A stretch of DNA of 64,000 nt, from positions 239,816,001 through 239,880,000 of the forward strand of contig NC_091977.1 of NCBI RefSeq assembly GCF_044704955.1. The letters are read 5' to 3'. Made by a program: the position numbers and the translations under genes. This document shows, piece by piece, positions 1,990 to 51,599 of the stretch. The DNA is from Pristiophorus japonicus. Taxonomy: Eukaryota. The notes under the pieces are model-generated. The model made no database searches and was not told the origin of the DNA. It saw nothing but the letters and a program-made list of their open reading frames with translations. Every line of letters starts with the position of its first letter. The first letter of the stretch is position 1.

Positions 1990-3308
1990 ATGCACTGCAG
2001 CAGTTCTGAGTGGGAAAGGAAAACAGAGTTTGGTAAGTGGGAGAGTTTGGTGAAGTGGGGGCAGGAGGTGTTGGGTTTGCCTTGTTTTTTCTAACTTTTC
2101 CCGCAGAGCAGCGGCATACCTGAGCAGGAGCAGACTGAGGCCCGAGAGTGGGGATAAAAACCACAGCAGACCACAGCATACCACCAGTGTGATCTCCTAG
2201 ACCAGTTTCGATCGCCTGGTTGGGTGGAGAGGAATTTCCCAGATTTTTTCCCCAATTGGCCTGGGGTTTTATCTGTTTTTTTGCCTCTCCCAGGAGATCG
2301 CACGGCTCTGGGTGAGGAGAACTCTGCTGTGTGACATCACAGGTAAGGCAGATAAGTGATTGTCGGCTAAGTTTTTCTTTTAAATTAACATATAACATAT
2401 AACTACATTCTAAAAACTAACCATTATTTGTTTAACTACATCAATAAACTATATAGGGTAAATCCTTTGATTAACACTAAACTAATTAATTAAATAAAAT
2501 AATGGGAAAACAGGAGATGCGGAATAACTAAGGGCAGAAAACTCTAGTGGGTGTTGTGTACAGACCACCAAACAGTACTAATGAGTTTGGGGATGCGTGC
2601 AATAAAGGTACAGCAGTTACCATGGGTGACTTTAATCTACATATAGATTGGGCTAACCAAACTGGCAGCAATACGGTGGAGGAGGATTTCCTGGACTGTA
2701 TTAGGGGTGGTTTTCAAGACCAATATGTCGAGGAATCAATTAGAGGGCTGGCCATCCTAGATTGGGTGATGTGCAATGAAAAAGGACGAATTAGCGATCT
2801 TGTTGTGCGAGGCCCCTTGGGGAAGAGTGACCATAATATGGTAGAATTCTTTATTTAAATGGAGAGTGACACAGTTAATTCAGAGACTAGGGTCCTGAAC
2901 TTAAGGAAAGGTAACTTCGATGGTATGAGATGTGGATTGGCTAGAATAGACTGGTGAATGATACTTAAAGGGTTGATGGTGGATAGGCAATGGCAGACAT
3001 TTAAAGATCACATGGGGATTAACTTCAACAATTGTACATCCCTGCTTGGCGTAAAAATAAACCGGGGAAGGTGGCTCAACCGTGGCTAACAAGGGAAATT
3101 AGGGATAGTGTTAAATCCAAGGAAGAGGCATATAAATTGGCCAGAAAAAGCAGCAAACCTGAGGACTGGGAGAAATTAAAGAATTCAGCAGAGGAGGACA
3201 AAGGGTTTAATAAGGAGGGAAATAGAGTATGAGAGGAAGCTTGCTGGGAACATGAAAACTGACTGCAAAAGCTTCTATAGATATGTGAAGAGAAAAAGGT
3301 TAGTGAAT
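1990..3308 (+). mobile_element. CR1 LINE fragment (putative 5' region plus ORF2 APE endonuclease/linker), cut off by the satellite
   Basis: GVVYRPP, MGDFN, LDWVMCN and LGKSDHN motifs (ORF 2547-2858); PWLTREI; colinear with the CR1 at 39100-39915. The 5' boundary is uncertain. Confidence 0.85.
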
Positions 3309-3330
3309 ATGACATGACGAAAGATTAGTC

Positions 3331-6300
3331 TTGCGTGCCATGCCATGTATCATGCAATGTGCCATGCCGTGTGTCATGTTATGTGTCATGTCTCATGTCA
3401 TGTCATGTTGTGCCATGTGTCATGTTGTGTGCAATATTATGTGGCGTGTTGTGTCATGTGTCGTGTCATGTGTCATGCTGTGTGTCATGTTGTGCCGTGT
3501 GTCATGTTGTGTCGTGTGTCATGTTGTGTCGTGTGTCATGTCATATCATGTCATGTGTCATGCTATTTGTCATGTTGTGTGCCATGTTGTGTTCATATGT
3601 CGCTTAATGTCTTGTGCCATGTTGTGTTGTGTGTCATGTCACGTGTCATGTCATATTGTGTGTAATGTTGTGTTGTTTGTCATGCTGTGTGTCATGTTGT
3701 GTCGTGTGCCATGTTGTGCATCATGTCTTGCGTCATGTCATGTTGTGCCGTGTATCATGTTGCATGCCATATTGTGTGGTGTGTTGTGTCATGTGCTGTG
3801 TCATGTGTCATGCTGTGTGTCATGTCGTGTCACATGCAGTGTGTCATAAATGACATGTGTCATGCCATTTTCATGTTGTGTGCCATGTCATGTGCCAGAT
3901 TTCATATGTGCAATGTGCTGTTTGTCATGTCATGTGTCATGTTGTGTCATGTAATTTTGTGTGTCATGTCTTATGTCATTTGTGTCATGTTGTGTGTCAT
4001 TATGTGTGTCATGTATTATGCTGTGTGTCTCGTTGTGTCATGTGTCATGTTGTGTATCGTGTTGTATCATGTCATGTCGTGTGTCATGTCATGTTGTGTG
4101 CCATGTTGTATTGTGTGTCATGCCATGTGTCATGCCATGTGTCATGCCATGCATCATGTTGCATGTCATGTCATGTGTCATGTCGTGTCTGGTGTCATAT
4201 TATCTGTTATTTCGTGCTCATGTATCATGTCATGTTTAATGTTGTATGTCATGTTGTGTCAGGTAATATGTTGTGTGTCATGTCATGTGTCCTGTGTCAT
4301 GTGCCGTGTCATGCCATGTTGTGCCATGTGCCATGTTGTGCACCATGTCTCACGTCATGTCATGTTGTACCATGTGTCATGTTGCATGCCATATTGTGTG
4401 GTGTGTTGTGCTACGTGCCATGTCATGTGTCATGCTGTGTGGCATGTCGTGTCACATGTCATGTGTCAGAAATGCCGTGTGTCATGCTGTTTTTCATTTT
4501 GTGTGCCATATTTCATGTTATGTGTAATGTGATGTTTTTCATGTCGTGTGTCTTGTGTCATGTAATGTGTGCCATGGCATATGTCATTTGTGTCATGCTG
4601 TGTATCATGTGTTATGCTGTGTGTCTTGTTGTATCATGTGTCGTGTTGTGTTTCATGTTGTGTCGTGCCATGTTGTGTGTCATGCCATGTGTCATGCCAT
4701 GCATTATATTGCATGTCATGTCATGTGTCATGTCGTGTCTGGTGTCATGTTGTGTGTCATTTCGTGCCATGTGTCATGTAGTGTGCCATGTGTCATGTGA
4801 CATGTGACATGTGACGCGTGTTATGTGTCATGTCATTTTGCATCATGTGTCATGTAATGTGCCATGCCATGTGTCATGCTGTGTGCCATGTTGTGCCATG
4901 TGTCATGCCGTGTGTCATATCATGCCTAGTGCTGTGTCATGTGTCGCCATGTGGCATGTCATGTGTTGTGTGTCATGTGATGCATCATGTGTGGCATATG
5001 TGGCACATGTTGTGTCATGTGCCATGTGTTGTGTAGCGTGTCATGTGTCAAGTCATGTGTCATGTCATGTGTAATGTTGCATGTCATGCAGTGTCAGGTA
5101 ATATGTTGTATGTCATGTCATGTGTCCTGTGTCATGTGTCATGTCGTCCCATGTTGCCATGTTGTGCATCATGTCTCACGTCATGTCATGTTGTGCCATG
5201 TGTCATGTTGCATGCCATATTGTGTGGTGTGTTGTGTCACGTGCCGTGTCATGTGTCATGCTGTGTGTCATGTTGTGTCACATGTCATGTGTCAGAAATG
5301 CCGTGTGTCATGCTGTTTTTCATGTTGTGTCATGTTGCATCATGTGTCATGTCATGTCATGTGCCATGCCATGTGTCATGTTGTGTGCCATGTTGTGCCA
5401 TGTGTCATGCCGTGTGTCATATCATGCCACGTGCCGTGTCATGTGTTGTCATGTGGCATGTCATGGCATGTTGTATGTCATGTCATGCGTCATGTGTTGT
5501 GTCATGTGTCATGTGTCTTGTGTTGTGTGGTGTGGCGTGCCATGTGTCAAGTCATGTGCCATGGCATGTGTAATGCTGCATGTCATGTTGTGTCATGTGA
5601 CATGTTGTGTGACATGTCATGTGTCATGTGCCGTGTTGTGCCATGTGTCATGTTGTGCATCATGCCTCACGTCATGTCATGTGCCGTGTGTCATGTTGCA
5701 TGCCATAGTGTGTGGTGTGTTGTGTCATGTGCCGTGTCATGTGTCATGCTGTGTGTCATGCCGTGTCACATGTCATGTGGCAGAAATGCCGTGTGACATG
5801 CTGTTTTTCATGTGTGCCATATTTTATGTTATGTGTAATGTGATGTTTTTCATGCCATGTGTCATGTGTCATGTAATGTTGTGTGTCATGGCATATGCCA
5901 TTTGTGTCATGTTGTGTGCCATGTGTTATGCTGTGTATCTTGTTGTGTCATGTGTCATTTTGTGTATCATGTTGTGTCATGTCATGTCGTGTGTCATGTC
6001 ATGTTGTGTGTCATGCTATGTGTCATGCCATGCATTATATTGCATGTCATGTCATGTGTCATGTCGTGTCTGGTGTCATGTTGTGTGTCATTTCGTGCTG
6101 TGTGCCATGTACTGTGCCATGTGCCATGTGACATGTGGCATGTGTCACGTGCTATGTGGCATGTAATGTTGCATCATGTGTCATATCATGTGCCATGCCG
6201 TGTGTCATGTTGTGTGCCATGTTGTGCCATGCGTCATGCCGTGTGTCATATCATGCCAAGTGCCGTGGCATGTGCCATGTGGCATGTCTTGTTGTGTTGT

Positions 6301-8762
6301 ATGTCATGCCATGCATCATGATGTGTGTCATGCATGTCATATTTTGTGTCGTGTGTCATGTGTCATGAGTTGTGTGCTGTGCCGTGTCATGTGTCAAGTC
6401 ATGTGTCATGTAATGTGTAATAATGCGTGCCATGTGTCATGTGACATGCTGCGTGTCATGTCATGTGTCATGTGCCGTGTGTCATGTCATGTTGTGTGTC
6501 ATACCGTGTCATATGTCATGTTGTGTGTAATGTCATGTTGTGTTCCATGTCATGTGTCATGCTATGTGCTTATGCTGTGTGTCATGTGTGTCACGCATCA
6601 TGTAATGTCATGTGGCATGTGTCATGTTACATGCCATATTGTGTGGTGTGTTGTGTCATGTGTCATGTCATGTGTCATTCCATCTGATGTGTCATGTTGT
6701 GTTGTGTGTAATGGCATGTCATGTCATGTGTTATGGCTTGTGATGTGCCATGTGTCATATCGTGTGACCTGCCGTGTTTCATGTAGTGTCATGTGTCATG
6801 TCATGTCATGTTGTGTCATGTGTCATGTTGTGCCATGTCATGGTGTGTGCCAAGTTGCTTCATGTCATGTCATCTGTCATTTCATGTGTCATGTTGTGTG
6901 TCATGTGTCATGTTGTGTCATGCGTCATGTTGTGTAGCATGCCATCTGTCATGTCATAGCATGGGCCATGCCATGTCATGTGTCATGCAGTGTGCCATGG
7001 CATGTGCCGTGCCATGTGTCATGTGTGTCATGTTATGTCCTGTCATGTGTATGCCGTTTGTCATGCCGTGTGTCATGTCATGTCATGTGTTATGTTGTGT
7101 AGTGTGTCATGTGTCATGTCATGTGTGTAATGGTGTGCTGTTTGTCATGGTGTGTGTCATGTTGTGTCATGTGCCATGTTTGCATCATGTGTGCCATGTT
7201 GTGTCATGTGTTATGCCAAGTGTCATGTGTCACATCATGTAAATTTCTTGTTGTGTGTCATTTTGTGTGGCATGTCATGTCATGTGTCATGCCCCATCAT
7301 GTGTCATGTTTAGTCATGTGTCATGCCGCATTGTGTGTCATTTTGTGTTGTGTGTTGTGCCAGCTGTCATGCCATGTTGTGCTGTGTGTCATGCCATGTG
7401 TCATGTTGTGCCGTGTGTCATGCCATGTGGCATGTCATGTGTTGTGTCAGGTGTCATGCTGTGTGTCATGTCATGTCGTGTGTCATGTCATGTTGTGTGT
7501 CATGCCATTTGTCATGTGTGCCATGTTGTGTGTTGTATATCATGTCGCATCTTGTGTAATGTTGTGTTGTTTGTCATGGTGTGTGTCATGTTGTTTCATG
7601 TGACATGTTGTGTATCATGTGCGTCATGTTGTGTCATGTGTTATGCCATGTGTCTTGTGTTGTATGTCATGTTGTGTTGTTTCATGCTGTGTGGCATGAC
7701 GTATCGTATTGTGTGTCATGTCATGTATGCTGTCATGTGTCATGTTGTGTATCATGTTGTGTCATGTGTCATGTCACATCTTGTCATGTGCCATGTCGTG
7801 TTGTGCCATGTCGTGTTGTGTGTCATGTCATGTGTCATGTCATTTTGTGTGTAATGTTATGTTGTCGGTCATGGCTTGTGTTATGTGTGCCGTGTGCCAT
7901 GTTTTGTGTCATGCCGTGTGTCATGTTTTTCCATGTGTTATGCTCTGTCTTGCCGTGTTGTTTCATGCTGTGTGCCATGTTGTGTGGCATGTCATGTGTT
8001 GTGTGTCATGTCATGTGTGGTGCCACGTGGCATGTGTATCATGTCATGCTGTATGACATGTGTCATGTGTCATGCAATGCATCATGTCGCGTGTCATGTC
8101 ATGTGTCATGTCGTGGCACGTCATGTCATGTCGTGGCAGGTGTCATGCTGTGTGTCTTTTGTGCCATGTGCCATGCTGTGTGCTGTGTGTCATGTGTCAT
8201 GTGTCATGTGGCATGTGTCATCAGTTTGTGTCATGTGTCATATCATGTGTCATGTCATGTGTCATGTTGTGTGCCTTGCCATGCCATGTGTCATGGCGCA
8301 TGTCATGTTGTGTTGTATCATGGTGTGTGTCATGTTGTGTTGTCATGCCATGTCTCAGGTTGTGTTCCATGTTGTGTCATGCATCATGTCATGTATTATG
8401 TTGTGCCAAGTGTCAAGTCGTGCCATGTTGTGTTATGTGGCATGTCATGTGTTGTGTGTCATTTCATGTGTCATGTGTGCTCTGTTGTGTGTCATGTGTG
8501 TTGTGTTGTGTGCTGTGTGTCGTGCATCATGTGCTGTGTGCTGTGTCATGTCATGTGTCAATCTTGTGCCATGTCTTGTATAATGCCATGTGACATGTTG
8601 CATCATGTGTCAGGTCAAGTCATGTTGTGTCATGTGTCATGTCGTTCCGTGTCATGTCATGTGTCATGTTGTTTCACGTCATGTCATCTGTCATTTTGTG
8701 TGCCGTGTTGTGTGTCATGTTGTCTCATGTGTCATGTCGTGCGTCGTGCCATTTGTCATTTC
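3331..8762 (+). repeat. (TGTCA/TGTCG/TGTTG)n low-complexity satellite, about 5.4 kb, with internally duplicated blocks
   Basis: Continuous tgtcatgtgtcatg-type sequence. Rare marker CAGAAATGCCGTGTG at 4467, 5293 and 5781; AGGTAATATGTTGT at 4261 and 5096. Confidence 0.97.
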
Positions 8763-12932: not shown

Positions 12933-15900
12933 ATGGCCACCGGCAGCACAGAGGAACGTTACTGTGTGGGCGAGAACTGAGACGACTTCGTGGAAAGATT
13001 CCAGCAGAGCTTTGTCACGAAAGACTGGCTGGGAGCGACAGCGGCTGGCAAGCGGAGGGCGCATCTACTGACCAGCTGCGGACCACAGACGTATGCGTTG
13101 ATGAAAGACCTGCTCGCACCCCAAAAGCCAGTGGACAAGTCCTTTGAAGAGCTCAGCCAGCTGATCAGTGAGCATCTCAAGCCGGCGAGTAGCGTACACA
13201 TTTCCCAGCACTGGTTCTACACACACTGGCGTCGGGAGGGACAATACACCTCGGACTTCGTTGTGGACCTGCGGCGCTTGGCCAGCCTCTGTAAGTTCAC
13301 AGACGCCTGCAGGGGGGAGATGTTAAGGGACTTTTTCATTGAGAGCATTAATCATGCCGGGATTTTCAGGAAGCTCATAGAGGCCAAGGACTTGATTTTA
13401 GAAGGGGCGGCATTGATAGCTCAGCTCTTCATGGCAGGGGAAGAGGAGACCAAGCTAATTTACGCGCGCAGCCCTGGTCCCAGAGTGGCGATGGACCAGG
13501 GAGTTAACATAGTGAACGCGGCTAGGGACCCCGCAGGCAGGCAAGGGCATTTCGAAACCGCCCAGGCAGCAACAGACTCCAGGGCGGGCCCGCAACAGGG
13601 ACAATGGAAAGGGGATCGGTAATTCACGCCATCACGAGCAACAATATGTCCTGCGATGGGACCATTAACACCCACCATCAGAGTGCTTAGAAACAAGCAA
13701 ATGGGCAATCAGAGAGGAATACCTGGTAACAGTCCCTTTGTTACCAACAATCTCAGTTCATGCTGGAGATGCGGGGGTAGACATACTGCGAAAAGCTGCA
13801 GGTTTCAGCAAAATACCTGTAGGATTTGTAACGTCAGTGGACACTTGGCCAGGATGTGCAAAAAGGCTGTGGCGAGGCTAATCTGTGAGACAGAGGAACC
13901 AGACGAGGGGTCTGCAATGCAGGATGATGCCTGGGGAAAAGCTATGGATGCTGAAGTTCAGCGGGTTCACGTGGCTGACGTCCACAACTCATACACTAAA
14001 ACGCCACCCATGATGATGAAAGTTTTATTGAATTGCATCCCGGTGCACATGGAGCTGGAAATGGGAGCTAGCGAGTCACTTATAAGTGCCCAACAATTTG
14101 AGAGACTATAGCCACACAGAGCTAGCAGGCCCAAACTGGAACGCATTGACACACAGCTACGGACATACATCAAAGAGATCATTCCAGTGCTAGGCAGTGC
14201 AAACTTGGTGGTAACACATAATAGATCATAAAACCGGCTGCCCCGCGCTCTTGGGGAGGAGTTGGCTAGCCAAGATGAATTGGAAATGGGGGGATGTGCA
14301 TGCCATTTCATCTGTGGAGCGAAGTTCATGCTCACAGGTCCTACAAAAATTTGGGTCACTGTTTCAACCCGGAGTCAGAACGTTCAAGTGCACTAAAGTA
14401 GTGATACGCATCATTCCGGATGCCAGACCAGTGCACCACAAAGCCAGAGCGGTGCTGTATGTGATGCGTGAGAAAATTGAAAGTGAATTGGACAGGCTGC
14501 TCAGAGAGTGCATCATTTCGGCCATTGAATTCAGCGACTGGGCAAGTCCCATCATTCCTGTCCTTAAAGCAGATGGCTCGGTCAGGATTTGTGGCGACTA
14601 CAAAGCCACCATCAACCGAGTGTTGCTGCAAGACCAATACCCGCTCCAGAGAGCGAAAGACCTTTTTGCCATGCTGGCAGGTGGCAAGCTGTTCACGAAG
14701 CTGGAACTCACTTCAGCCTACATGACTCAGAAACTGGCTGAAGAATCCACCATGACGACGCACAAGGGATTATTTATCAACAACAGGGGTCCATTTGGCA
14801 TTTGTTCAGCGGCGACAGCTATCTTTCAACGGAACATGGAAAACTTGCTCAAATCCATTCCTGGAACAATCGTATTTCAAGACGACAACCTTATAACGGG
14901 TCGAGGCACCGAGGAACACCTCCACAACCTGGAGGAGGTGCTACGCCGACTGGACCGGGTAGTCTTGCGGCTGAAAAAGGCCAAGTGTGTGTTTTTGGCC
15001 CCAGAACTCGAGTTTTTGGGCAGAAGGGTTGCCGCAGACGGGATCCGGCCCATCGAATCAAGAACGGAGGCGATCCGCCGGGCGCCCAGGCCCGGCAACA
15101 CGTCGGAGTTGCGATCATTCCTGGGACTTTTGAACTATTTTGGGAACTTTCTGCCAAACTTAAGCACATTGTTGGAGCCGTTACACATGCTCCTGCATAA
15201 AGGTTGTGATTGGCTTTGGGGGGACTGTCAAGAACGGGCTTTCAATAAGGCGAGGAACCTGCTGTGTTCGAACAGACTGTTGACTTTGTATGACCCCTGT
15301 AAAAAACTGGTTTTAACGTGCGATACATCGTCCTACAGGGTTGGGTGTGTGTTGCAGCAGGGTAATGACGACTGCTGAGTCCAACCAGTGGCTTATGCCT
15401 CCAGGTCACTCTCCCAGGCAGAGCGTGGATACGGCATGGTCGAAAAGGAAGCACTCGCTTGTGTTTACGGTGTGAAAAAGATGCACCAGTACCTTTTTGG
15501 TAGACGGTTCGAGCTAGAGACGGACCACAAGCCGTTAACATCCCTGCTGTCCAACAGCAAGGCTGTCAATGCCAATGCGTTAGCTCACATACAGCGATGA
15601 GCTCTCACGCTGGCTGCGTATGACTACACCATACAGCACCGGCCAGGCACCGAAAATTGCGCTGATGCGCTCAGCAGGCTTCCCCTGGCCACCATCGAGG
15701 GGTCAGCGGAGCAAAGCTGAGGCTTTTGACACCGCAGGCTCCCCCATCACAGCCCGCCAGATCAAACTCTGGACCAACAGAGACCCCCTCCTATCCATGA
15801 TAAAGAAATGTGACCTAACTGGGGATTGGGCGCCCACACACAGGGCATGCCCCGAGGAGGTCAGACCGTTTCAGAGACAGATGGATGAGCTCTCCATCCA

Positions 15901-17073
15901 AGCTGACTGCCTGCTATGGGGCAGCCGGGAAGTCATGCCCCAGAAAGGAAGGGAAGCGTTCATCAGGGAACTCCACAGTGAGCACCCTGGCATCGTGTTA
16001 ATGAAGGCCATTGCCCGGTCACATGTATGGTGGCCGGGGATTGACTCAAACCTGGAACACTGGGTTTGCAAGTGCACGACATGTGCCCAGCTGGGCAATG
16101 CCCCCAGGGAGGCCCCACTCAGCCCGTGTCCTGGCCCACCAGGCCATGGTCACGCATTCACGTAGACTATGCAGGCCCGTTCATGGAGAAAATGTTCCTG
16201 ATTGCTGTCGATGCATACTTGAAATGGATCGAGTGCACCATATTAAACTCGTGCACGGCATCCATCACCGTGGAGAGTCTGCGTACGGTTTTCGCGGCCC
16301 ACGGCTTGCCGGATATCCTGGTCAGCGACAATGGCCTGTGTGTCACCAGCCATGAATTCCAGGAGTTTATGTCGGGCAATGGTATCAAACACGTCCGGAC
16401 AGCGCCGTTCAAGCCGGCTTCCAATGGCCAGGCGGAACGTGCGGTCCAAGCCATAAAACAGGGCATGCTACGCATCCAAGGACCCTCCCTTCAGTACCGC
16501 CTATCGTGCCTCCTGCTGGCCTACAGGTCCTGCCCGCACTCGCTCATGGGAGTCCCGCCAGCGGACCTTCTCATGAAATGCATATTTAAAACACGGCTGT
16601 CCCTCATTCACCCAGCCCTGGCAGACATTGTTGGGGGCAAGCGCCAGTCCCAAACCGAGTTCCATGATCGAAACTCAAGGGGGAGGTGTATAGAAATGGA
16701 TGACCCGGTATTTGTTCTTAACCATGCTTTGAGACCCAAGTGGCTTGAGGGCACAGTAATTGGCAAAGAAGGGAATAGGGTCATTGTGGTCAGACTAAAC
16801 AATGGGCAGATATGCCGCAAACACTTGGACCAAGTAAAGAAAAGGTTCAGCATAGACACGGAGGCACCTGCAGAAGAGCATGAGATGTCACCCACATCAC
16901 TGCCAGTGGACGAGCAATGAGGACAATCCACAGCATGCACAGTCCCTGCGGCCAGCCTGGACAGGCCGGAATCACCTCAGGTGACAGAGACACGTACCGA
17001 GGCTCAGCCACCAGAGCCATAACTGGGGCGCTCCATGAGAGAGCGTCGACCACCTGAAAGAGTTAACCTTTGA
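12933..17073 (+). pseudogene. gag-pol: Gypsy-1 gag-pol with stops and frameshifts
   Basis: Two zinc knuckles (CWRCGGRHTAKSC, CRICNVSGHLARMC); RT WASPIIPVLK..VRICGDYK, FQDD; RH LTCDTS; IN HSEHPG..CTTC, HVDYAGP, SDNG. Confidence 0.93.
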
Positions 17074-18019: not shown

Positions 18020-19190
18020 ATGGGGCCTGTCCTTTCTCACCCTCTCTTGGTGACCAAATATATGCAGCAGACTCGACATTGCCAAAGGAATGCTGCGCTG
18101 CATTATGTGACCAATGCACGAAGTAACAGACTGATGAGGAGGACCAGACATTACACCCTCCCGCAAGCACAAAGAGAAGCATTCTTACCTCAACTTGCCC
18201 GATACCACCTGCCTTCGGAGACTGCATTTCCACAAAGAGGTTATCACTGAGGTATGCCAGCTGATAAGGGCAGACCTGCAGCCTGCCAGAGCCATCAAAA
18301 CTGCACTATCCGTCAAGGTTAAAGTCACCGCGGCACTATTGTTCTATGCCTCGGGTTCTTTTCAGGCCACAGCTGACGACATTTGTGGACTTTCTCAGCA
18401 TGCCACACATCACTGCATTAGACAGGTCACTGAAGCCCTGTACACATGCAGAAGGGACTTGATCAGCTTTCCGATGACCAGGGAGATACAGAGTGAGAGG
18501 GCTCTAGGTTTCTCCAGAATTACAAACTTCCCCAAGGTGCAAGGAGCAATAGACTGTACGCACATCACGATGCAGGCACCTTTTCAGGATGCTGAGGTTT
18601 TCAGGAACCACAAGGGATTCCACTCCCTGAATATCCAGCTGGTTGTCGACCACCAGCAAATTATACTGGCAGTGAATGCTAAATTTCCAGGCAGCATCCA
18701 TGCTACTCACATCCTGCGTGAGAGCACTGTAACTGATTTGTTTAACAATCAGCCACAAGGTCAATGCTAGATGCTTGGGGACAAAGGATATTGCCTCGCC
18801 ACCTGGCTGATGACCCCGCTGCTTGAGGCTGAAAGGTGATACAAGAAGAGCCACAGAGCAACTCGCAATATCATGGAGAAAACCATTGGAGTGCTGAGGC
18901 AGCGCTTTAGATGCCTGGACCACTCAGGAGGCGAGCTCCAATACCACCCTGGGCAGGTAGCTACACAATTTGGCTATTAGGAGGGGACAAGAATTGCCTG
19001 ATGAGTCTGACAGACTATTTCACCAGAGAGAGGAAGAGGAGGATGAGGAGGCGGACGCTGACATCGGGCCAAACAATCAGGCTGATGCTGAAGCCATGTC
19101 CCCGCCCCCCTGTAGACCGCATGAAGGCATGGTGGCATGATAGCTGCAAGAGCCTTACATCAGGAGCTCATCAATGATCACTTTGCCTGA
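18020..19190 (+). pseudogene. Harbinger DDE transposase (HARBI1-like), disrupted
   Basis: FYASGSFQ, FPKVQGAIDCTHI, FRNHKGFHSLNIQLV, FPGSIH, then LGDKGY after a stop. Confidence 0.9.
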
Positions 19191-21418: not shown

Positions 21419-22622
21419 TGTAAGCGATTTTGATCCTAGCCTAATTGCTAGATGGACGGTTCGAATCGCCCCCGCCTTACGAAAGTTCTAGACCCGGGAA
21501 TTATTATTCAGAGTGTAAATGAAATGAGTCACGGACAGGAATGCTTCGGTGAAAAAAAAATCATACTTCTATTTATTTGGGCTAACATACACTGGCTAAA
21601 ACATGCACTACTAAACAAAATCACTGTGTCTGTGGAGAATAAAATCCAGGTTACAAACAACATACATACAGTACAGAAATGAGACCTAGTAACATGCAGT
21701 AATTCCTTGGTGGATTCTAACTGCACCCCTACCAACAAATTACCCTCCCCAGAATAGCCCTGAAAAGCTTCACTTCTGAGAAAACCTGAGCCCTTACCCA
21801 GCATGCCTGGGATATCTGGTTACTGGCTTGGGACACTCTCGATCATGCACACCATCACATGCAGCCGGTTTCCTTTCTCAGCTCAGCTGTGGGAAGTCAC
21901 TGCCTGGTTTTCAGTCTCGGCGGCTTCTTCTGCTGCACTGCGGCTTCTTCCTCTGGTACATCGATCTTGGTGTAGCGAGAGCGAGAGGTAGAGAGAGCTC
22001 TCTCTAGATACAAGCAGCAAGCTGCAAGCTCCAAGCTTCACTCCAAGCTCCAAGCTTCAAGCTAAAAATAAAGTGGAAAAGACTCTGGTTTTATGGGAGT
22101 TTTGTTACCCCTATCTTTCCCGCCAATCTTTAAAACCCCTTTGTATCTAAGCACAGATGCTTAGTCAGTGATAGGCCATCCAACCCACATGCACTGGGTG
22201 ATGGCCCTTAATCTGGGTATCTCGCCGTGTCTTTGTGTTAGGAATAATCTGGCTCCCCTTTGGCTGGCCAGGCTAGTGGGTTCATTGTTTCTGTTTTTCC
22301 TTCTGAGATGGAAGTGAGAAGTGCTTTTACATATTAGAGTGGCTTTGTCAATGGCCCTTCCTGACTGACAGCTCTTTTGTCAATATTCGTGGCCCCCTTC
22401 CTTTAGCTGTGACTGGTGGGCAAACCCGTTCTGGATGACTGACAGATCTTTTGTCACAACTCGCTGCCATGCGGTCTCTGGAGTTTTAACAAAACCAGCT
22501 TTTTCACATACCTGCACAGAGTGATCCCATCATAGGGAAAATACCCTCAGAAAAACCCATAAAGTCCATGAAATATTCTCGACTGAATCCATTCTTGAAA
22601 CAGCAACTTTGCGATCTCTTCA
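21419..22622 (-). repeat. 3' LTR of the Loki-like provirus
   Basis: TGTAAGCG...TCTCTTCA on the plus strand; PPT (minus strand ATGGGGGAC) adjacent at 22623-22631. Confidence 0.93.
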
Positions 22623-22981
22623 GTCCCCCATTTGATGCTTTTTCTTTCCATAAAGCATCACTCGACGAGAGAGCAAAGGCCAAAGTCTCCCACAAGTGAA
22701 GTTGTTCCCCTGATTTTACGTTTTAAAAACCCCAAAACTGTACCCCTTACTGCATGTCACCGTTCCCTTCTACAGAGTTAAGACATCAGTGAAAACGGCT
22801 TCTTAACACGTGGTCGGATTCCACTCCTCGATACGTTAGAAAAACACTGCGCACATCACGCAAAACAGAGTGTGAAACCCTAACCAGAATATACAATACA
22901 CTTGCTTACAGAACTTTGGTACATTACAAGTTTTAGCAGGGAGAAACCATCGTCCACATACATCAATTACACCTCTCCGGG

Positions 22982-25272
22982 TCAATCTAACACCCCTTGC
23001 CACTGCGCTCGGATCATCTGGCTCTGTCGCCTGTAGCTGGTGTAAAACAAGTAGCCTACAAGGAACAATTGTATGATAACCAATGCATGGGAACAGATGC
23101 AGTTCCCGGGAGGAATCTCCACACTCAGACCGATGTCCCACCACGGTGGCGAGGCAATCCCCTTGATCTCCTCCCCCAGTCCTACTGTCTTTTGCTCTAA
23201 GGTTTAAAAATGTTTCTGGGATAGCTCAACGGTCTTTATTAACTCAGTGAGGTGTTCCGGCAGAAAAGGAATCGGGTACCCGAAATGCTCCACATAGTCC
23301 TGGAGATGCGTGTCATTCACAGTGAGGTGAATGGTTGAGGGTTCGAGGATGGGAGTAATTCGCTCTTGTGCCACTTGAACCTCAGCCTTGAGTGTGAAAG
23401 AAAACTGCTATCGTTCATCGGACACCACATGTCCTGATTGTATCGGTAGCGGAGCGCACGTGGTGCCACTCCCCACATATGCTACCTGTGGAGGTACGTG
23501 ATCTGGTGCCATCATTTCCATGGTGCAATTGATAGGTTCCCCGCCTGCAGAAGCAAACCCACATTCTGATCGGGCAAAAGCAATCAAGTGCTGGGGACAC
23601 AGTATTACGTGTGCACCACGGCTCTGGCATCCGGAGAGGTCAATGCCTGTCATGGCATGCTCCCACTTTATGACATACGGTAGGACCACTTTAAAACGAA
23701 CATGCACTCCTCCACGAATGACCCCGATATTCTCAACCCTGTATACCGGTGCTGGCTGGAATTACCTGTCCATTACCAGCATCCTTACTACAATTCCCAT
23801 CACTGTATGGTTGGACTGCCTGCAATCTAGAGGGACAGGGTAGGCTTCAGAGGCTAAACAAAGCTGGCACGGGCTCAATGAATTGCTATATGGATGCAGC
23901 GCGACGAGATGCTTGTTGTTTATCCATGAAGGGACGTGACCTTGCCTCAGGTCCTCCAGGTTACAGCGGCCCTCGCCCAGCAGCTATGCTCCATACAACA
24001 CACACACCTCATACCGGACAGCCTGCTCCGAGGTGTTCCTGTCCTCCCGTATTAAATCATTAACAGTTATTAGCGTGCCTCTCCAGCTCCGCAATGACCT
24101 CCTTTAAATGAACAGTCATTGCCTGGTCCTCATGAAGCTCTGAACCCACCACTTTGTTCTTTTCCCCTAGAATCTTACACAGTTGGTTCTTTAACCCAGT
24201 GATCTGCATCTGGAGTTGCACATCATCCATAGTATTAACAATACCCGTTCCTGTACTGAGCACTGTGGCTACATCGTTCCAGGTCCCTCTTCTCTGCCTC
24301 CCGGACCCCACACTATTCCCAACATTCAGATCATAAAGCTGTTCTTTATCTACATTTCCAAAGTCCAGTTTATAAAATTCCTGAAGCATCACTTTTAACA
24401 GAGCTTCATAAAGCTTCTTCGTCTTCTTTGGGCAGCACACAGGCAGGTGGACTTCAGTCAGGTTGAGGATCACGCATGTCACGGAGTAGTGCACATTCTG
24501 AAACAAAACTTTGTCAGTAGGGATTAACACCAACCCATTGCTGGATCCCTGGTGGTGGTAGGACACCTATCTATAGCCGTCTGTACTGTCGGGCTCTGGG
24601 CGGGGGCTTCCTGGTGTATGAGATGAGCTCTGTGGCGTTGATGGTGTTCGGGGGATTTGGGATCACACAGGAGTCCACACTCCGACCCCAACCAATCCCA
24701 CCCCCGGCATCCTGCCATCGCCTGCTAAACGCGATCGACACACCAGTTCGGCAGATCTTTTCCGACCCCCACATATACACATCAATCCCTTCCTCGGAGT
24801 CCCACCACTTATTGCAACACAGATACACTCCTCCCTGAGAATCCGTGATCGTCCAGTACGTGTCGTTACGTAGTCTTTCCCAGTCAGCTGTCTGGTCCCC
24901 TGTGTCCATGCTCAGTTTCCTAAGCCACCATCACCTTCCCAGTAGAATGTGTCCCCTACAGCTAAGGCACACCTGTTTACCCTCCGTTACCCTAACCCGG
25001 GAGGTGGTGACCCCTATTCTCGGACATGGGATGGAAGCTTCACCATTGTTGAATTTGTCATGGCTGGAATACTGGGTGGAATTCGACCCCAGCCATCCAG
25101 GCCCTCTTCCCTTGTGGAGATAGACGCTCGCCCCATCATTCGAGCCACCTCCAGTGCTCACGGTCGGTCCGTCTCTGCCAGTGCAGCCGAAGATAACTGA
25201 TTCCTCGGTGTCGCCCCTGCGACTCGTGCTGGCTTCAATCATGGCGATCAGGATTACTATGGCTGGCTTCAT
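22982..25272 (-). pseudogene. env: env: F-like class I fusion glycoprotein with an N-terminal extension, several stops and frameshifts
   Basis: Signal-like MKPAIVILIAMIEAS; furin site RQRR followed by GTWNDVATVLSTGTGIVNTMD and a heptad; DLRQGHVPSWI; YRVENIG; IDLSGC..ILCP; PPWWDIG followed by TM ALVIIQLFLVGYLFY and a short tail (manually translated). Confidence 0.8.
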
Positions 25273-25299
25273 TTTATTTTTAGGCATTCCCTGACAAAC

Positions 25300-28200
25300 A
25301 CACAGACCCATACCTGTAGCACAGCTCACCACTCCCTGCTGCTTCCTTCTCTTGTCAGCTCTTTCCCCAGGGTTGAAAAGCTTGCACTGATTGATATGGA
25401 ACCACTTAGTGCGTCGGGGCATTTTGACCACATATACCATCGGACTTGCCTTATCCACGATACTGTACGGTCCCATGTATAGCGGTTCAAAAGTCCCTAC
25501 CCTGGCGAACTTTCTGACCATTACTTAATCTCTGACCTTCCACTCGTGGTGCCTCCGAAGCTCAAGCAATAAACGATTTCTACGATGTTGCTTCCCCATG
25601 TTACTGGCAGCCTGCCAATGGATCTGTTTGAGATGTTCAAACAGATTCTTAACAAACCTTTTCCGGTTCACCGCTCTCAACTGACCTTCCATGAGAACCG
25701 GTGCCAGTACATGGCTGGGCGTTCTCATGACCCTGCCAGTCATGAGCTCATGTGGGGAATACCCTGTGCTTCTAGAGGGGCTGGCTCAGACCCCCATCAA
25801 AACTAACGGCAAGACCTCCACCCATTTTCTAGGCGAGTCTCCCGTTTCCTTTCATAACCTTTCTTTGATGGTCCTATTCATTCACTCCACAATCCCTGAT
25901 GACTGCAGGTTGTGGGCGACGTGCCATTTACCCTCTCCACCTAGCATCTTCAGAGTCGCCTGCATGACTGCCCCTGTGAAGTGACTCCCCTGATCGGACT
26001 CCACATACTGTGGTAGCCCCCACCTAGAGAATGCTTCTCTCACTAGAATCCTTGCGGTCCCCACAGCTGGGAAACCTTCTACCCATTTAGAAAACACATC
26101 TACCAGGACCAGGCAGTATTGTAACCCCCCTGCGCGATGGACAGCAGCCCGATATAATCGACCTGTATGGACTGCCATGGTCCCTCCACTCTCCTTGTGT
26201 GTCCCATGGATACCTTCCTTTTCTGGGGGTCAGGGTTGTTTGCAGCACACACCAAGCAATCCGCGCAGAAGTTGCGGACATCCTCCCTCAGTTACGGCCA
26301 CCACCCTGCCTGTTCCACCCGTTGCCAGGTGGTTTCCAGCCCAGGGTGCCCCGCTCCTGGACCCTCATGGGCCAACTGAAGGAATTCTCTCCGGTGCTGC
26401 TGTGGAACTACCCACTGTTCCCCTCTGAAAACCATCCCTTCCTTTACCGTAATGCCTGTCACTCCGTATGGACCCTCTACCTTATCACCCTTAGCCAGCG
26501 TCTCCAGAACAGTCTTTAGGATGGGATCCTGTGTCTGGACCATCTTTAGGTCCAGGGCCAATACTACCCCTGCACTCCCTTGTGTCCCATCTCTGTCCCT
26601 GATCGCGGCTACTGGACTCGACCCATAAGGATCCCAAAACATGCCCGTTCGAGCACCTTCCTTGGCCAGTATGTCGGCCTGCTGATTGACCTCTGCACGG
26701 GGTTCTGTCTTAGAATGGGCCTTGACTTTGTGGATATAGAAATCCCCCTGGGTTCCTATTGATGTTATGATCTGTTGCAACTATGGCTTGGTTGCTAGGG
26801 GTTTCCCGTCTGTGATGTGAACCCGCAACGAGACCAAATGGCTAAATATTCTGCATATGAATTGCAAGTGAACATGCTGTCCTAGCAAATCGTGTAGGGT
26901 GTAGGGAACTCTTCGGGGTGGGTAACCATATACACCACCGCTGACAGTTCAGCGTGCTGGGCGCTCATGGTGCTCGGGAGTTTAATGGCCTTGGCAATGC
27001 CCGCCTTTGGGTCAAAAATCTCGCATCCAGTGAATCACTCCCCTGCCACCACTGTACTGGACCCGTCTACATAGATCTCGCAGCCCGTAGGATTGATCCC
27101 AGCCCAAAACCCTATGTTTACATCCCATGCCCCTTCAACAGAACATTTGTGAGCCACCTCTAGATAGATCAAATTTGCGGCGAGCTTGGGCTCACAGAGG
27201 CCTTTCACGCTCAAATTCATCTGCGAGAGTAATAAAGTCCAGCAAGCAATGCGTGCACTGCTCACCATGCGTCCTTTATCCTCCCATCCAGAAGCATCTG
27301 AGTGGGCGTATGATGGGTTAAGAGAGTTATCGGGGACACCCCTGTGAAGATTTGTGATCTCTTCACGGCCCAAATGTGTGGCAAGCAGGTGCCTCTCACA
27401 ATTGGAGTACCCCCTCTCTACATCTGTGAGGATTCTTGATGAGTATACCACAGGCCTCAGCTTGCCATGTTGCTCCTGGAACAGCACTGCACTTAAACCG
27501 TCCCCTGGGGCAGCTACCTCCAAAAAGAACTGCTCTCCCCCATCAATTGCTCCCAAAGCCGGTGCGGTCTGCAGATCGCTCTTCAGACGACTAAAAGGTG
27601 CCATGCAGTCCTCATCCCACTCCCAGCCCACTCCCTTGTGGAGGAGCCGGAGTAGAGGGGCTGCCGTAGTGGCATAATCGCTCTATGAAATCCCTGCAGT
27701 ACCCTGGAAGGATCTTACTCCTGTTACCATGGTCGGGGCAGGTAGCTCCTCGCCTCATCGATGGCCCTCACCCCAGCCCGCACGGTCAGCCCGAGGATTT
27801 TTACTTCCTGCTGCCGATCTGTGCTTTCCTAGGATTGACCTTGAAGCCAGCTTCCTTTAACAGACTCAGCAGCTCAGCCAGCAGTGGGCCATACTCCTCC
27901 TCCTTTGTCGGATAACAAAAGCAGGTTGTCCACATACTGCACAAGCTGCTGCGGTCTGCTGAACCCTTTTGTTGGCCATACATTGCTGGAAAATAGAAGG
28001 ACTGTTATGAAACCCTTGGGGAAGGCAGGTCCATGTGTACTGCTGACACTTGAAAGTGAATGCGAGCTTCTGAGAGGGATAGACCAGAATCCACTTGAAA
28101 TGTCCAGCACCATGAATGTTTTCGCAGATGCTGGGATACTCCCGATCAGGTTGGCTACAGCTGCGACAGTGGAGGCACAAGCTGGGATGTTCTTGTTAAG

Positions 28201-28957
28201 AATCCGATAGTCCACAGTGGCTCTCCACGAATTGTCCGGTTTCCTAACCGGCCAAATCAGAGAGTTCACATGGGTCGCTATGAGTCTCAACACACGCCTC
28301 TAAATCCGCCTCAGCCTTTCTAGGGAAGTTGTACTGTTTCTGTGGTCGGGCCATGGGGTCTCCTTCTACTCTGACCTCCACCCCTGCTACCCTCCCACAG
28401 TCGTGCTTGTGTGTAGCGAATGCCACGAGGTTGGCTCGCAGATCCGCCCTGTACTCCGCCGGGGTAGAAGTGACCAAAGGTTCAAGGTCATTAATACCCT
28501 TGGGCTTCATTGTACACGCGGTTCCATTGCCTTGCTTCCCTGGTATAACTATCACCTCCTTCTGCTTTCCTGTGCATACTGCCCCCCATAGACAGTGATT
28601 CTGGAAATCCACCAATATCTTGTGGGCCAGTATGAAGTCTGTCCCCAAAATGCCTATTCCCCCCCACTCCCACCACATCAGGACACATTTCCACTCCATA
28701 TGGAGTGTCCTCAGATCGATGGCTAGCAGGATGGAGAAAGACCCCGTTCATTCGTTCCCGGTGAACCCTACTAAGTTATATGGGACCCCGTTCGATAGAG
28801 GTGATGTGGTCGGGTTATCTGCATAGACAATAGTGCTTGAAGCTCCAGTGTCCAGCAGCTAGGTCCCTTGCACCTTCTCCACCTCCATCTTCACGCACGT
28901 TCTTCTCCAAGCATTATAACTTAATGGGCACTGGTAAACGGGCTGGGAAGCCCCTCG
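25300..28957 (-). pseudogene. pol: pro-pol (PR, RT, tether, RNase H, IN), degenerate
   Basis: LLDTGAS; NSLIWPVRKPDNSWRATVDYR; LPQGFHNSP; QYVDN; tether FFLEVAA..RPVVYSSR; RNase H IYVDGSS..HAEL..KVKAHS; IN AHEGPGAGHPG, LVDVFSKW, SDQGSHF, QSSGIVE; GPY module. Confidence 0.92.
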
Positions 28958-30606
28958 TCATGGGTCGGGATTGTTCGGAGCGGATGGGAGTACGCTTCCT
29001 GCTGCCACCCTACCCTGCCCTGCCGGAAAGACTGCGCGGAGAACAGCCACTAATACCGCGAATGGATCCAGTGCTGCTTCCCACCACAGCTGCGGCTTTC
29101 CGCGCTGGGGCTGGAGGATCCCCTTTCCCGCTCCCTTTGTCAGAGACTGGGCAGTCTTTCCTCCAGTGCCCTTTACTCCCGCACCCATAACAACCCTGCT
29201 TCTTCTCTGAGCTACCCACTTTCTGGCGCCACTCTTTTCTAATGTTGCCTCCACTAGGCTTTAACTCGTGCACTCTGCCCTTTGGTTTGTCCTCCTCACC
29301 CCTACCATTCTTAAAAGAGAGAGTTAACTGCGGATCACCCCCTCGTCTGTGGTCTGGGGATCCTTGGAATCGAACCACCCCTCTCCTTTGGCCTTGATCC
29401 TGGGCAGGCTGTTCACCACCAGGGTCCTCAGCCAATGAGCCTGAGGCTCCCCCTGCAGTTGCGCCCGGTCAGGCACCCCCACACAGGCACTCCGGTAGAC
29501 AGGCCAAAGCCTGCAGTGCCTCCCCAGCTAACTGCAGTGTCCTTTCCTCTCAGGAGAAGGGACTTCCATCATTGAGGTCCATAGCCTCTAGGATGTCATC
29601 CTTTATCCCCTCTAACATACCCTGCCCCTCTTGCTACCTGCTGAGAGCAACTGGTACAACCTACTATCCAGGGAAAACAAAAGTAATTTGGCTGCCTCAG
29701 CTTCATTACAATTATTGATCCCACCCCCCCACCTGTTCCACATCCATAAAATGGACAGATGGGTCGTCATTGCTGGTCAGTTTGGTCAGGTTAGAGACCA
29801 TTGCCTGCAGCTGAGAGGTCATATACTGGACTACGAAGTCACTCTGCAATGGTCCTTGCTCTTGACCGCCTACGGGTGCACCGTATTTCTGCTACCGGAC
29901 AGGGCACATGGATCCTGGTCCCGGCACTTCGAGCGGTGGTCGAGTGTCCTCCTCTGCCTCACAGTCCTTCTTATCTTTCCCCTGCTCTACCTCATCTACC
30001 CGGGCCATTCCCGGAGCTATCAAGCATACCATCCCTTTAGCCCTAGATAGAGCATCGGTTAAATTCTGGATCTGCTCCTGGCAAGGACCATGATTAGCCG
30101 TATCAAAACCTCTAGTGCTGGAGACTCTGTATGCCACCTGAATATCCTTCAACTGCTCTTGCAGCACCTTTACCTCACTCGACAAACGAACGTTCTCCTC
30201 CCTAACCGCCTCTCGTTCCCTTTTGGCTCAGTTACTTGGCATTGCTGGAACTCCTTATGGTTACGGAAGGTTTCCTCCTGGCTTATTCTTCCCCTCTTCT
30301 TATCCCTTAGCTGCGTGCATAACCTGCTCTTTACTACAGCCCTTGCGTCCGATTGTGCCTTGGACTCCCTGAGCTCTGCCGCTAACTTACCAACTGCTCA
30401 TCTAGCAGTTGGACTTGTCTTTGTAGACAGACGAGCCATATTGCCTTTTCAATGCTACGCCTATGCTCCTTGCCCTTCGTCCATTCTGCCGCTGCCTCCA
30501 TTGGACGATCAGCACGCAACAAGCCTAGCACCTTGTTAACCTTCTTAAATACATATGAAGAAATCCCTTCCTCCATTTGTGATCTTTCGCCAGAAGCACT
30601 GTCCAT
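28958..30606 (-). pseudogene. gag: gag with coiled-coil segment and a single CCHC knuckle, degenerate
   Basis: ATG at 30606; heptad-like EVKVLQEQLKDIQ..QEQIQNLTDAL; CYGCGSKGHWRKDCP. Confidence 0.8.
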
Positions 30607-30632
30607 GACTGACTTAGACTCCTTTAACCCGT

Positions 30633-30650
30633 GTCCTGTCGTGGTCGCAA
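30633..30650 (-). promoter_or_regulatory. PBS, probably tRNA-Arg
   Basis: GTCCTGTCGTGGTCGCAA versus the tRNA-Arg(TCG) 3' end GTCCTGCCGCGGTCGCCA (15/18); lies 5 nt from the LTR. Confidence 0.7.
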
Positions 30651-30655
30651 AGAGA

Positions 30656-31848
30656 TGTAAGCGGTTTTGATCCTAGCCTAATTGCTAGATGGACGGTTTG
30701 AATCGCCCCCGCCTTACGAAAGTTCTAGACCCGGGAATTATTATTCAGAGTGTAAATGAAATGAGTCACGGACAGGAATGCTTTGATGAAAAAAATCATA
30801 CTTTATTTATTTGGTCTAATATACACTGGCTAAAACATGCACTACTAAATGAAATCACTGTCTTTGTGGAGAATAAAATCCAGGTTACAAACAACATACA
30901 TACAGTACAGAAATGAGACCTGGTAACATGCAGTAATTCCCTGGTGGATTTTACCTCTACCCCTACCAACGAATTACCCTCCCCAGAATAACACTGAGAA
31001 GCTTCACTTCTGAGAAAACCCTGAGCCCTTACCCAGCATGCCTGGGATATCTGGTTACTGGCTTGGGACACTCACGATCATGCACACCATCACATGCAGC
31101 CGGTTTCCTTTCTCAGCTCAGCTGTGGGAAGTTACTGCCTGGTCTTCAGTCTCGGCGGCTTCTTCTACCGTACTGCAGCCCCTTCCTCTGGTACATCGAT
31201 CTTGGTGCAGCGAGAGCGAGAGGTAGAGAGAGCTCTCTCTAGATACAAGCAGCAAGCTGCAAGCTCCAAGCTTCACTCCAAGCTCCAAGCTTCAAGCTAA
31301 AAATAAAGTGGAAAAGACTCTGTCTTTATGGGAGTTTTGCTACCCCTATCTTTCCCGCCAATCTTTAAAACCCCTTTGTATCTAAGCAGTATCTTAGTCA
31401 GTGATAGGTCATCCAACCCACATGCATTGGGTGATGGCCCTTAATCTGGGCATCTATTCGAGTCTTTGTGTTGGGAAAAATCTGGCTCCCCTTTGGCTGG
31501 CCAGGCTAGTGGGTTCATTGTTTCTGTTTTTCCTTCTGAGATGGAGGTGAGAAGTGCTTTTGCATATTAGAGTGGCTTTGTCAATGCCCGCCCCTCCTGC
31601 CCCCTTCCTGGCCGACAGCTCTTTTGTCAATATTCATGGCCCACTTCCTTTAGCTGTGACTGGTGGGCAAACCCATTCTGGATGACTGACAGTTCTTTTG
31701 TCACAGCTAACTGCCATGCGGTCCCTGGAGTTTTAACAAAACCAGCTTTATCCCATCACAGGGAAAATACCCTCAGAAAAACCCATAAAGTCCATGAAAT
31801 ATTCTCGACTGAGTCCATTCTTTAAACAGCAACTTTGCGATCTCTTCA
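30656..31848 (-). repeat. 5' LTR of the Loki-like provirus
   Basis: Direct repeat of 21419-22622 with scattered substitutions and a few small indels. Confidence 0.93.
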
Positions 31849-34725: not shown

Positions 34726-36790
34726 AAACATTGAAACATAGAAACATAGAAAATAGGTGCAGGAGTAGGCCATTTGGCCCTTCGAGCCTGCACCACCATT
34801 CAATATGATCATGGCTGATCATGCAACTTCAGTACACCATTCCTGCTTTCTCTCCATATCACTTGATCCCTGTAGCCTTAAGAGCCACATCTAACTCCCT
34901 TTTGAATATATCTAACGAACTGGCCTCAACAACTTTCTGTGGTAGAGAATTTCACAGGTTCACAATTCTCTGAGTGAAGAGGTTTCTCTTCATCTTGGTC
35001 CTAAATGGCTTACCTCTTATCCTTAGACTGTGAGCCTTGGTTCTGGACTTCCCCAACATCGGGAAATTCTTCCTGCATCTAACCTGTCCAATCCCATCAG
35101 AATTCGATATGTTTCTTCTAAATTCCAGTGATTTTAAGCCTAGTCGATCCAGTCTTTCTTCATATGACAGTCCTGCCATCCCAGGAATCAGTCTGGTGAA
35201 TTTGCTCATTCACCTAATCTGTCCAAGTCCCCCTGCAGCCTCCTAGCATCCTCCTCGCAGCTCGCACTGCCACCCAGCTTGGTGTCATCTGCAAACTTGG
35301 AGATATTACATTCAATTCCTTCATCTAAATCATTAATGTATATTTTAAATAGCTGGGGTACACTAGTCACTGTCTGCCATTCTGAAAAGGACCCATTTAT
35401 TCCCATTCTTTGCTTCCTGTCTGCCAACCAGTTCTCTATCCAATTCAATACATTACCCCTAATACCATGTGTCTTAATTTTGCACACTAATCCCTTGTGT
35501 GGGACCTTGTCAAAAGCCTTTTGAAAATCCATAGGTTCTACCTTATCCACTCTACTAGTTACATCCTTAAAAAACGCTAGAAGATTTGTCAAGCATGATT
35601 TCCCTTTCATAAATCCATGCTGACTTGAACCGATCCTGTCACAGCTTTCCAAATGCGCTGCTATTAGAGCTTTAATAATTGATTCCAGCATTTTCCCCAA
35701 CACCGATGTCAGGTTAACTGATCTATAATTCCCTGTTTTCTCTCTTCCTCCTTTTTTAAAAAGTGGGGTTTCATTAGATACCCTCCAATCCATAGGAACT
35801 GAACCCGAGTCGATGGAATGTTTCCTGACTAATAAGGATTTCCCTCAGTTCCCCCTTCTCACTAGACCTTCGGTCCCCTAATATTTTCGGGAGGTTATTC
35901 GTGTCTTCCTTAGTGAAGACAGAACCAAAGTATTTGTTCAATTGGTCTGCCATTTCCTTCTTCCCCATTATGAATTCACCTGATTCTGACTGCAAGGGAC
36001 CTACATTAGTCTTCACTAATCTTTTTCTCTTCACATATCCATAGAAGCTTTTGCAGTCAGTTTTTATGTTCTCTGCAAGCTTACTCTCGTTCTCTATTTT
36101 CCCCCTCCTAATGAAACCCTTAGTCCTCCTCTGCTGAATTCTAAATTTCTCCCAGTCCTCAGGTTTGCTGCTTTTTCTGGCCAATTTATATGCCTCCTCC
36201 TTGGATTTAACACTTGCCCAAATTTCCCTTGTTAGCCAAAGTTGAGTCACCTTCGCTTTTTTATTCTTACGCCACATAGGAATGTACAATTGATGTAGTT
36301 CATCCATGTGATATTTAATGTCTGCCATTGCCTATCCACCGTCAACCCCTTTAAGTATCCTTCCCCAGTCTATCCTAGCCAATTCACGTCTCATACCATA
36401 TAGATTCCATATCATCCACGTTAATGTCCTTCCTTACTATTGCGTTAATCTTCTCTTCCCTTCCTGTCTGTCGTTTCTGAATATTGAATACCCCTGGATG
36501 TTGAGTTCCCAGCCTTGGTCACCCTGGAGCCATGTCTCCGTAATCCTAATTACATCATATCCGTTAACAGCTATCTGCGCAGTAAATTCACCCACCTTAT
36601 TACAAATGCTCCTCGCATTGAGACTCAGAGCCTTCAGGCTTGTTTTTTTAACACTCTATCCTTTTAGAATTATGTTGTAATTTGGCCCTTTTTGATTTTT
36701 GCCCTTGATTTCTCTGCCCTCCACTCTTGCTTTTCTCCTTCCTACCTTTTGCTTCTGCCCTCTTTTTACTTCCCTCTGCCTCCCTGCCTT
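34726..36790 (-). mobile_element. CR1 LINE with internal deletions
   Basis: (GAAACATA)n tail at the left end; ORFs 35206-35793 (FADD) and 35774-36328; endonuclease remnant to about 36650. Confidence 0.92.
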
Positions 36791-42415: not shown

Positions 42416-42568
42416 GATCGAGACCAGCGAGGAGTAGCGTTCAAGTCCAGCAGGGAGAAGCGTTCGAGACCAGTGGGGAATAGTGTTCAAGACCAGTGAG
42501 GAGCAGCATTCGAGTCCATCGAGGAACAGGGTTCGAGATCAGCGAGGTGCAGCTTTCGAGTCCAGCGA
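42416..42568 (+). repeat. 23-bp tandem repeat (7 units, last partial), each with a B-box-like GTTCRAGWCC
   Basis: Units start at 42416, 42439, 42462, 42485, 42508, 42531 and 42554. Confidence 0.85.
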
Positions 42569-42599
42569 TTGGAGACGGTGAGCAGTGGAGGATCGATGA

Positions 42600-43122
42600 T
42601 GTCGGGGCCCTGGAGTAGTGGGTTGTGGCACAGGAGTGAAGGGGTCATGGCCCAGGAGCAGCGGGGTCATGGCCCAGGAGCGGCGGGATCGTGGCTCAGG
42701 AGCGGCAGGGTCATGGCCCAGGAGCGACGGGATCGTGGCTCAGGAGCGGCAGGGTCATGGCCCAGGAGCGACGCGGTCATGGCCCAGGAGCGACGGGGTC
42801 GTGGCCCTGGAGCGGCAGGGTCGTGGCCCAGGAGCGACGGGATCGTGGCTCAGGAGCGGCAGGGTCATGGCCCAGGAGCGACGCGGTCATGGCCCAGGAG
42901 CGACGGGGTCGTGGCCCTGGAGCGGTAGGGTCGTGGCCCTGGAGCGGCGGGGTCGTGGCCCAGGAGCGATGGGGTCGTGGCCCAGGAGTGATGGGGTCAT
43001 GGCCCAGGAGTGATGGGGTCGTTGCCCAGGAGTGATGGGTTCATGGCCCAGGAGTGAAGGGGTCGTTGCCCAGAAGCGATGGGGTCGTGGCCCATGTGCG
43101 CAGGGGCCATGGCCCAGGAGCA
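42600..43122 (+). repeat. 22-bp GC-rich minisatellite (TCRTGGCCCAGGAGCGRCGGGG)n, over 20 copies
   Basis: Direct inspection. Confidence 0.95.
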
Positions 43123-46151: not shown

Positions 46152-46503
46152 TGTTAGATCTCTTAATTTCTAATGAAATATGAACTCCGATTGTAGTTTT
46201 AATGTCACTTTATTTTTGGCAGCAGTAACAAGCTTCTGGCTTTAAGCCAGGTCTTTATCCTTCTGAGACCACATGGTCAAAATGGCTGGACTTATACCTG
46301 GATCAATTTACAGAAAATAACTCGCCTTCTTTGACCTTATTGGCTCAATTAATAATCTTTCAACCTTATAATTGGCTCGCTACCCAATGTACTAAAATGT
46401 CAAGTTGATTGATGATTTAATGCAACATGCTGAACTGCACATAGTCATTGGAGTCTGTGTTTTCTCAACCTGTCTAAATGCAGCCTGTTTGAATTCTCTA
46501 TCA
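46152..46503 (-). repeat. 3' LTR of ERV-2
   Basis: TGTTAGATC...CTCTATCA; near-identical to 53433-53784. Confidence 0.95.
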
Positions 46504-48120: not shown

Positions 48121-48144
48121 TTTCGCAAAAAGTAATTGTCCTTA

Positions 48145-51560: not shown

Positions 51561-51599
51561 TTGTATTAGTGCGAGGAGTGGGGCCAGGGTGGACTCTAT

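Follow-up and report, generated by a model that had tools for sequence, protein, structure and literature searches.

We analysed a stretch of 64,000 nucleotides (the window) from the 5.9-Gb genome of the sawshark Pristiophorus japonicus (NC_091977.1, positions 239,816,001 to 239,880,000), in which an endogenous retrovirus carries an envelope gene (env) with a predicted immunoglobulin (Ig)-like domain. The Ig-bearing stretch lies within a 10.4-kb provirus on the minus strand, as do all features described up to the last paragraph. The provirus has the order long terminal repeat (LTR)-gag-pol-env, resembling that of the lokiretroviruses, and every gene is broken. The 5' LTR (30656-31848; TG...CA) is preceded by the 4-bp target duplication CTAG, and the 3' LTR (21419-22622) stands between a polypurine tract and CTAG. 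The two LTRs were 95.0% identical over 1178 aligned bases (Kimura two-parameter distance 0.052). A decayed gag with a CCHC zinc knuckle occupies 29013-30672, an extent taken from open reading frame fragments, and zf-CCHC was matched in 29013-29468 with an expectation value (E) of 4e-5. The decayed pol (25340-28750, boundaries approximate) comprises reverse transcriptase, a degenerate RNase H (tether), RNase H and integrase. It matched the Pfam families RVT_1 (E 7e-6), RT_RNaseH_2 (5e-17), Integrase_H2C2 (3e-8) and rve (4e-7); the RNase_H match, which follows RT_RNaseH_2, was partial and under the cut-off (0.004). In a copy of a young subfamily (L053:1-1278), the integrase frame was extended past the integrase by about 190 low-complexity residues, a spacer that the window's subfamily lacks.

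The decayed env begins downstream of pol. A splice-acceptor-like pyrimidine tract with CAG, presumably used for env, lies just 5' of its ATG (25288-25305) and was found in the window and in all four copies examined from three subfamilies. Positions 25272-24571 form one reading frame with a single internal TGA at codon 114 (24931-24933, read as X). We compared this frame with other genomic copies. A nucleotide search with the DNA of the finding gave 1848 candidates. Forty were scored, namely the window copy and 39 others at 89-91% identity; 30 loci were returned from these 40 matches and, minus the window, left 29 other subfamily copies. The internal stop was also present in two of the 29. The frame starts with a signal peptide (codons 1 to about 19, 25216-25272), whose hydrophobic leader can be seen directly in the letters. 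This is followed by a segment designated N1 (codons about 20-83, 25024-25215) with two Cys and one sequon, by the predicted Ig V/I-set-like domain (codons about 84-186, 24715-25023, placed from open copies) and by a Pro/Cys-rich linker (24537-24714) whose frame is broken near codon 227 and again near codon 244. An F2-like segment (24288-24536) then ends in a single furin-type site, RQRR (24299-24288), and a decayed F1-like subunit (22980-24287) supplies the fusion peptide, heptad regions and transmembrane anchor. The env extension between signal peptide and F2 amounts to about 220 residues, in frame in open copies. An earlier note on this DNA had described the frame, the leader, Cys105, Trp115-Trp116 and the string PPPRARQYRR, all of which are present; its F-strand motif and its additional basic site did not hold as features of the family.

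The extension contains strongly conserved positions. The N1 motif H-x-G-x-W-P-G-x-x-G-x-N was invariant in 15 of 15 aligned sequences. The B-strand residue Cys105 (24958-24960) was found in 29 of 29 copies and in 15 of 15 sequences of alignment A3, from which chimeric zinc-finger columns had been left out and which was used for the CRTAM match, the best Ig_3 score and the counts of conserved Cys and sequons given below. Each residue of the C-strand pair Trp115-Trp116 (24925-24930) was kept in 28 of 29 copies. The earlier note had placed the F strand at codons 144-152 (24817-24843). When these codons were scored by alignment column counts, Cys152 was present in 28 of 29 other copies, and Asp144 and Tyr150 were present in none, being private to the window copy. 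Asp144 also stands eight residues before Cys152, matching neither D..G.Y.C nor the canonical D-x-G-x-Y-x-C, and this run is the predicted E strand. The F-strand motif of the family, D/E-x-G-x-Y-x-C, is located 14 codons further on, at codons 160-166 (24775-24795). It is decayed in the window copy; its Tyr and its Cys were each found in 27 of 29 other copies. The complete motif was present at 20 of 29 subfamily-A loci and 29 of 30 subfamily-B/C loci, with an E-strand-like run preceding it. All 16 motif-bearing open copies, of 17 listed, showed a Cys-Cys spacing of 61-62. The conservation expected by the earlier note was therefore observed for Cys105, the Trp pair and Cys152 and failed for Asp144 and Tyr150, and its short C2/I-set fold with about 46 residues between the Cys gives way to a spacing of 61 with a different second Cys.

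The earlier note had suggested a hidden Markov model search and structure prediction, and both were carried out. The window copy's own frame gave no match in a Pfam search with X at the stop. Open copies matched Ig_3 with a best E of 2.1e-4 at 22.2 bits, below the gathering score of 30. With the clean A3 profile, the best match was the V-set domain of CRTAM (PDB 4h5s and 3rbg, E 0.016-0.023), and the alignment covered the whole domain, the D-x-G-x-Y-x-C motif included. An AlphaFold model of modest confidence had Ig domains as 50 of its 50 best fold matches. It showed, at moderate confidence, a two-sheet beta-sandwich with Ig topology; the fold alignments covered model residues 12 to 152-156, leaving the G strand unmatched. 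N1 was modelled with a predicted local distance difference test score of 35-64, and one N1 strand packed onto the Ig sandwich. Compared with CRTAM and nectin-like V-set domains, the viral domain has extra conserved Cys and Trp residues. Ig_3, the CRTAM profile, the model, the fold search and the Atlas features together support the proposal that an F-like Env carries an Ig-like module at its N-terminus. These results suggest that the extension probably holds a V/I-set Ig-like domain at codons about 84-186, predicted to be closed by Cys105-Cys166. Codons 166-217 (24619-24777), which overlap the end of the Ig domain, weakly matched the two LU domains of CD177 (E 0.057); the profile did not recover this match, and it was discarded.

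No host donor gene for the Ig domain was found, and a CRTAM match at E 0.016 does not identify the donor. The full-library profile search yielded three new relatives and was uninformative on the donor or distant relatives, because zinc-finger columns in its alignment (A2) made nearly all of its 150 rows zinc fingers. Host capture of the Ig module is plausible.

We also examined the candidate cleavage sites of the Env. In the earlier note, RARQYRR was a second basic cleavage site releasing the Ig part. It lies at 24597-24577 and is readable only in a shifted frame. The frame change near codon 227 that it needs was absent from 27 of 29 copies, as was the second one near codon 244. The site, like the motif at codons 144-152, arose through decay of the window copy. 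Among 19 copies whose frame could be followed into F2, one had an R-x-x-R in the linker, next to a local deletion; none of 17 open copies had one there. A looser REMR within the Ig region occurred in five of these 17 and is not conserved. In a natural Env of 777 residues, R-x-K/R-R occurs at 327 and otherwise only in the cytoplasmic tail, and the single transmembrane segment lies near 730-758. With a single R-x-K/R-R site in the ectodomain of open copies, the Env consists of two parts, and the F2 subunit carries the Ig head. Withdrawal of the second basic site also withdraws the three-part Ig/F2/F1 Env, which is an artefact of reading one decayed copy.

The earlier note had further proposed a comparison of dN/dS, the ratio of nonsynonymous to synonymous substitution rates. 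It was calculated by the Nei-Gojobori method in 12 copies. Between subfamilies, the proportion of nonsynonymous differences in the Ig region was 0.16-0.23 versus 0.65-0.88 for synonymous differences, with dN/dS values of 0.17, 0.04 and one saturated, similar to F2. Within the window's subfamily, dN/dS was 1.1 (three pairs), as expected from decay after insertion. The substitution pattern indicates that the extension is under purifying selection between subfamilies, as F2 appears to be.

In its decay, the window copy is typical of its subfamily. It was 91.1% identical to the other copies, which were 90.8% identical among themselves, and it had 16 private residues, Asp144 and Tyr150 included, versus 8-18 in the other 29. 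A protein query gave 15,570 candidates; of the 123 that were scored, about 29 had stop-free frames of at least 757 residues. The extension was present in three subfamilies of the sawshark genome, and the named relatives with the extension come from whale shark, sawshark and a skate. The skate protein P0007 has both the extension and F2 with a basic site. A search among shorter proteins gave no hit in 43 candidates. No RNA carrier was among the records listed, which is evidence in neither direction. The provirus is one decayed representative of an endogenous retrovirus that occurs in sharks and skates and is very abundant. Two sawshark gene models (P0003 and P0075) predict fused host proteins: a zinc-finger array is linked to the complete extension with its Ig domain, and a Niban-like protein is linked to an Env fragment; these may reflect splicing into env or annotation artefacts.

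We compared the element with known systems, and statements on published work refer to the accessible parts of each source. Lokiretroviruses are described as the sister group of all other retroviruses (PMC7947760). They share with the present element the LTR-gag-pol-env order and the tether with RNase H, and their Env has a signal peptide, a single RxKR site, a fusion peptide, a coiled coil and a transmembrane segment, all of which are present in naturally open copies here (fusion peptide and coiled coil recognised by eye). The F2 start and F1 core motifs also match by eye (PMC7947760 supplement). However, the Ig-bearing extension of about 220 residues was absent from all 22 assessable loki Envs in the accessible material, one of the 23 being truncated; by eye, their F2 start motif lies within a few residues of the signal peptide, versus about 220 residues later here. 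The nearest reverse transcriptases in PDB were those of foamy virus, then murine leukaemia virus, then Ty3, a ranking, not a tree, that is compatible with a loki placement. The integrase of lokiretroviruses is close to CGIN1; here the nearest integrases in PDB were those of foamy virus and Ty3. Lokiretroviral Env is similar to the F protein of Mononegavirales (PF00523). The fusion part gave no match in Pfam and PDB sequence searches, PF00523 and PF12259 included, and the Atlas features on an open copy were Baculo_F (0.92) and Fusion_gly (0.91). The layout of F2, basic site, fusion peptide and F1 is shared with the F proteins of paramyxoviruses and pneumoviruses (PF00523) and of baculoviruses and errantiviruses (PF12259). 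Crocodilian CrocERV31, which captured nectin3, is likewise an endogenous retrovirus with Ig-superfamily domains under purifying selection, but in the available description its env has been replaced by an entire host mRNA with about 76% identity to the host protein (PMC4299795), whereas the present element has a complete Env into which a single, highly diverged domain is fused in frame.

The literature covered includes PMC8922424, PMC12440569, 10.1101/2023.10.26.564294 and PMC11521997. It contained no such architecture, in agreement with the earlier note, with subscription papers, Repbase entries and bioRxiv supplements outside this coverage, and no account of cell recognition by lokiretroviruses with an F-type envelope was found in the accessible parts. 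The Env is thus a real and apparently unpublished variant of the loki type. It also brings cartilaginous fishes into the range of loki-like elements; in the original screen, 0 of 6 chondrichthyan genomes were positive (PMC7947760).

We considered how the Ig part may function. On balance, we slightly favour the domain as a V/I-set Ig receptor-binding head of a likely F-type fusion protein that is cut once. Env would be translated from a spliced RNA and cleaved by a furin-type protease at the single site. In paramyxovirus F, F2 remains attached to the membrane-anchored F1, and the large N-terminal subunit composed of N1, Ig, linker and F2 would likewise stay attached to F1. The Ig head would be exposed on the exterior of the trimer and bind a protein of the cell surface, probably another adhesion molecule of the Ig superfamily, and this binding would help to trigger fusion. 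Paramyxoviruses have the attachment function on a protein separate from F, whereas here the candidate head is fused to F2. If this is true, a host-type domain would here have been incorporated into a class I fusogen instead of replacing it, and a discrete, self-folding Ig head would give a small soluble reagent for finding the receptor.

Large DNA viruses use Ig domains as immune modulators or decoys. The Ig domain could be real and act in this way on virions and infected cells, targeting an inhibitory or adhesion receptor of shark leukocytes and leaving entry to the F part alone. We regard this as unlikely. The best sequence lead, CRTAM, is a lymphocyte nectin-like receptor, and published loki Envs presumably entered cells without the domain; however, there is no cleavage site to free the domain from the fusogen to which it is fused, and between subfamilies its constraint equals that of F2. 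The extension could also stabilise or hide the prefusion trimer, as a structural cap or glycan shield, without binding a host protein. Its nine conserved Cys, its three conserved sequons, its unusually Trp-rich surface and the conserved N1 segment with no assigned fold would suit such a role, but canonical Ig motifs typical of interaction domains are retained and other F-type Envs fold without an extension, which makes a cap improbable. A viral beta-rich domain that merely resembles an Ig sandwich, its motifs having arisen by convergence, appears decidedly improbable: every Ig score is sub-threshold, the model confidence is modest and the donor was not found, yet four partly independent methods agree on clan and register, and the order and spacing of the B-, C-, E- and F-strand motifs are correct. 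A short C2/I-set Ig freed by a second furin site is how the window sequence by itself reads, but it is barely credible given Asp144 and Tyr150, the frame change and the 18 of 19 in-frame copies with no R-x-x-R in the linker, and only a non-furin protease cutting the linker could rescue it.

Beyond the receptor-binding head, we tentatively consider a wider account, which seems possible and somewhat doubtful. The element may belong to a lokiretrovirus lineage of cartilaginous fishes that is undescribed, has been hugely amplified and is still young; before the split of sharks and skates, this lineage would have grafted a nectin-like host V domain onto an F-type fusogen. This would have produced an attachment-plus-fusion machine in one gene, with entry by mimicking Ig-Ig adhesion.

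Other repeats were found elsewhere in the window. A second, unrelated provirus on the minus strand (46152-53732) has direct repeats that are 96% identical over 300 nt, as well as gag and pol; its Env (46779-48023) is of the ordinary retroviral type, with a motif resembling an immunosuppressive domain, as recognised by eye. A TGTCATG-type satellite with 12/17-nt units and a G+C-rich 22-nt tandem array lie at 3300-8750 and 42554-43191. Decayed gypsy-like pol fragments, a Harbinger-like transposase fragment and CR1-like long interspersed nuclear element pieces were recognised by eye from open reading frame translations at 14215-16920, 57168-59106, 18138-18770 and 35206-36331.
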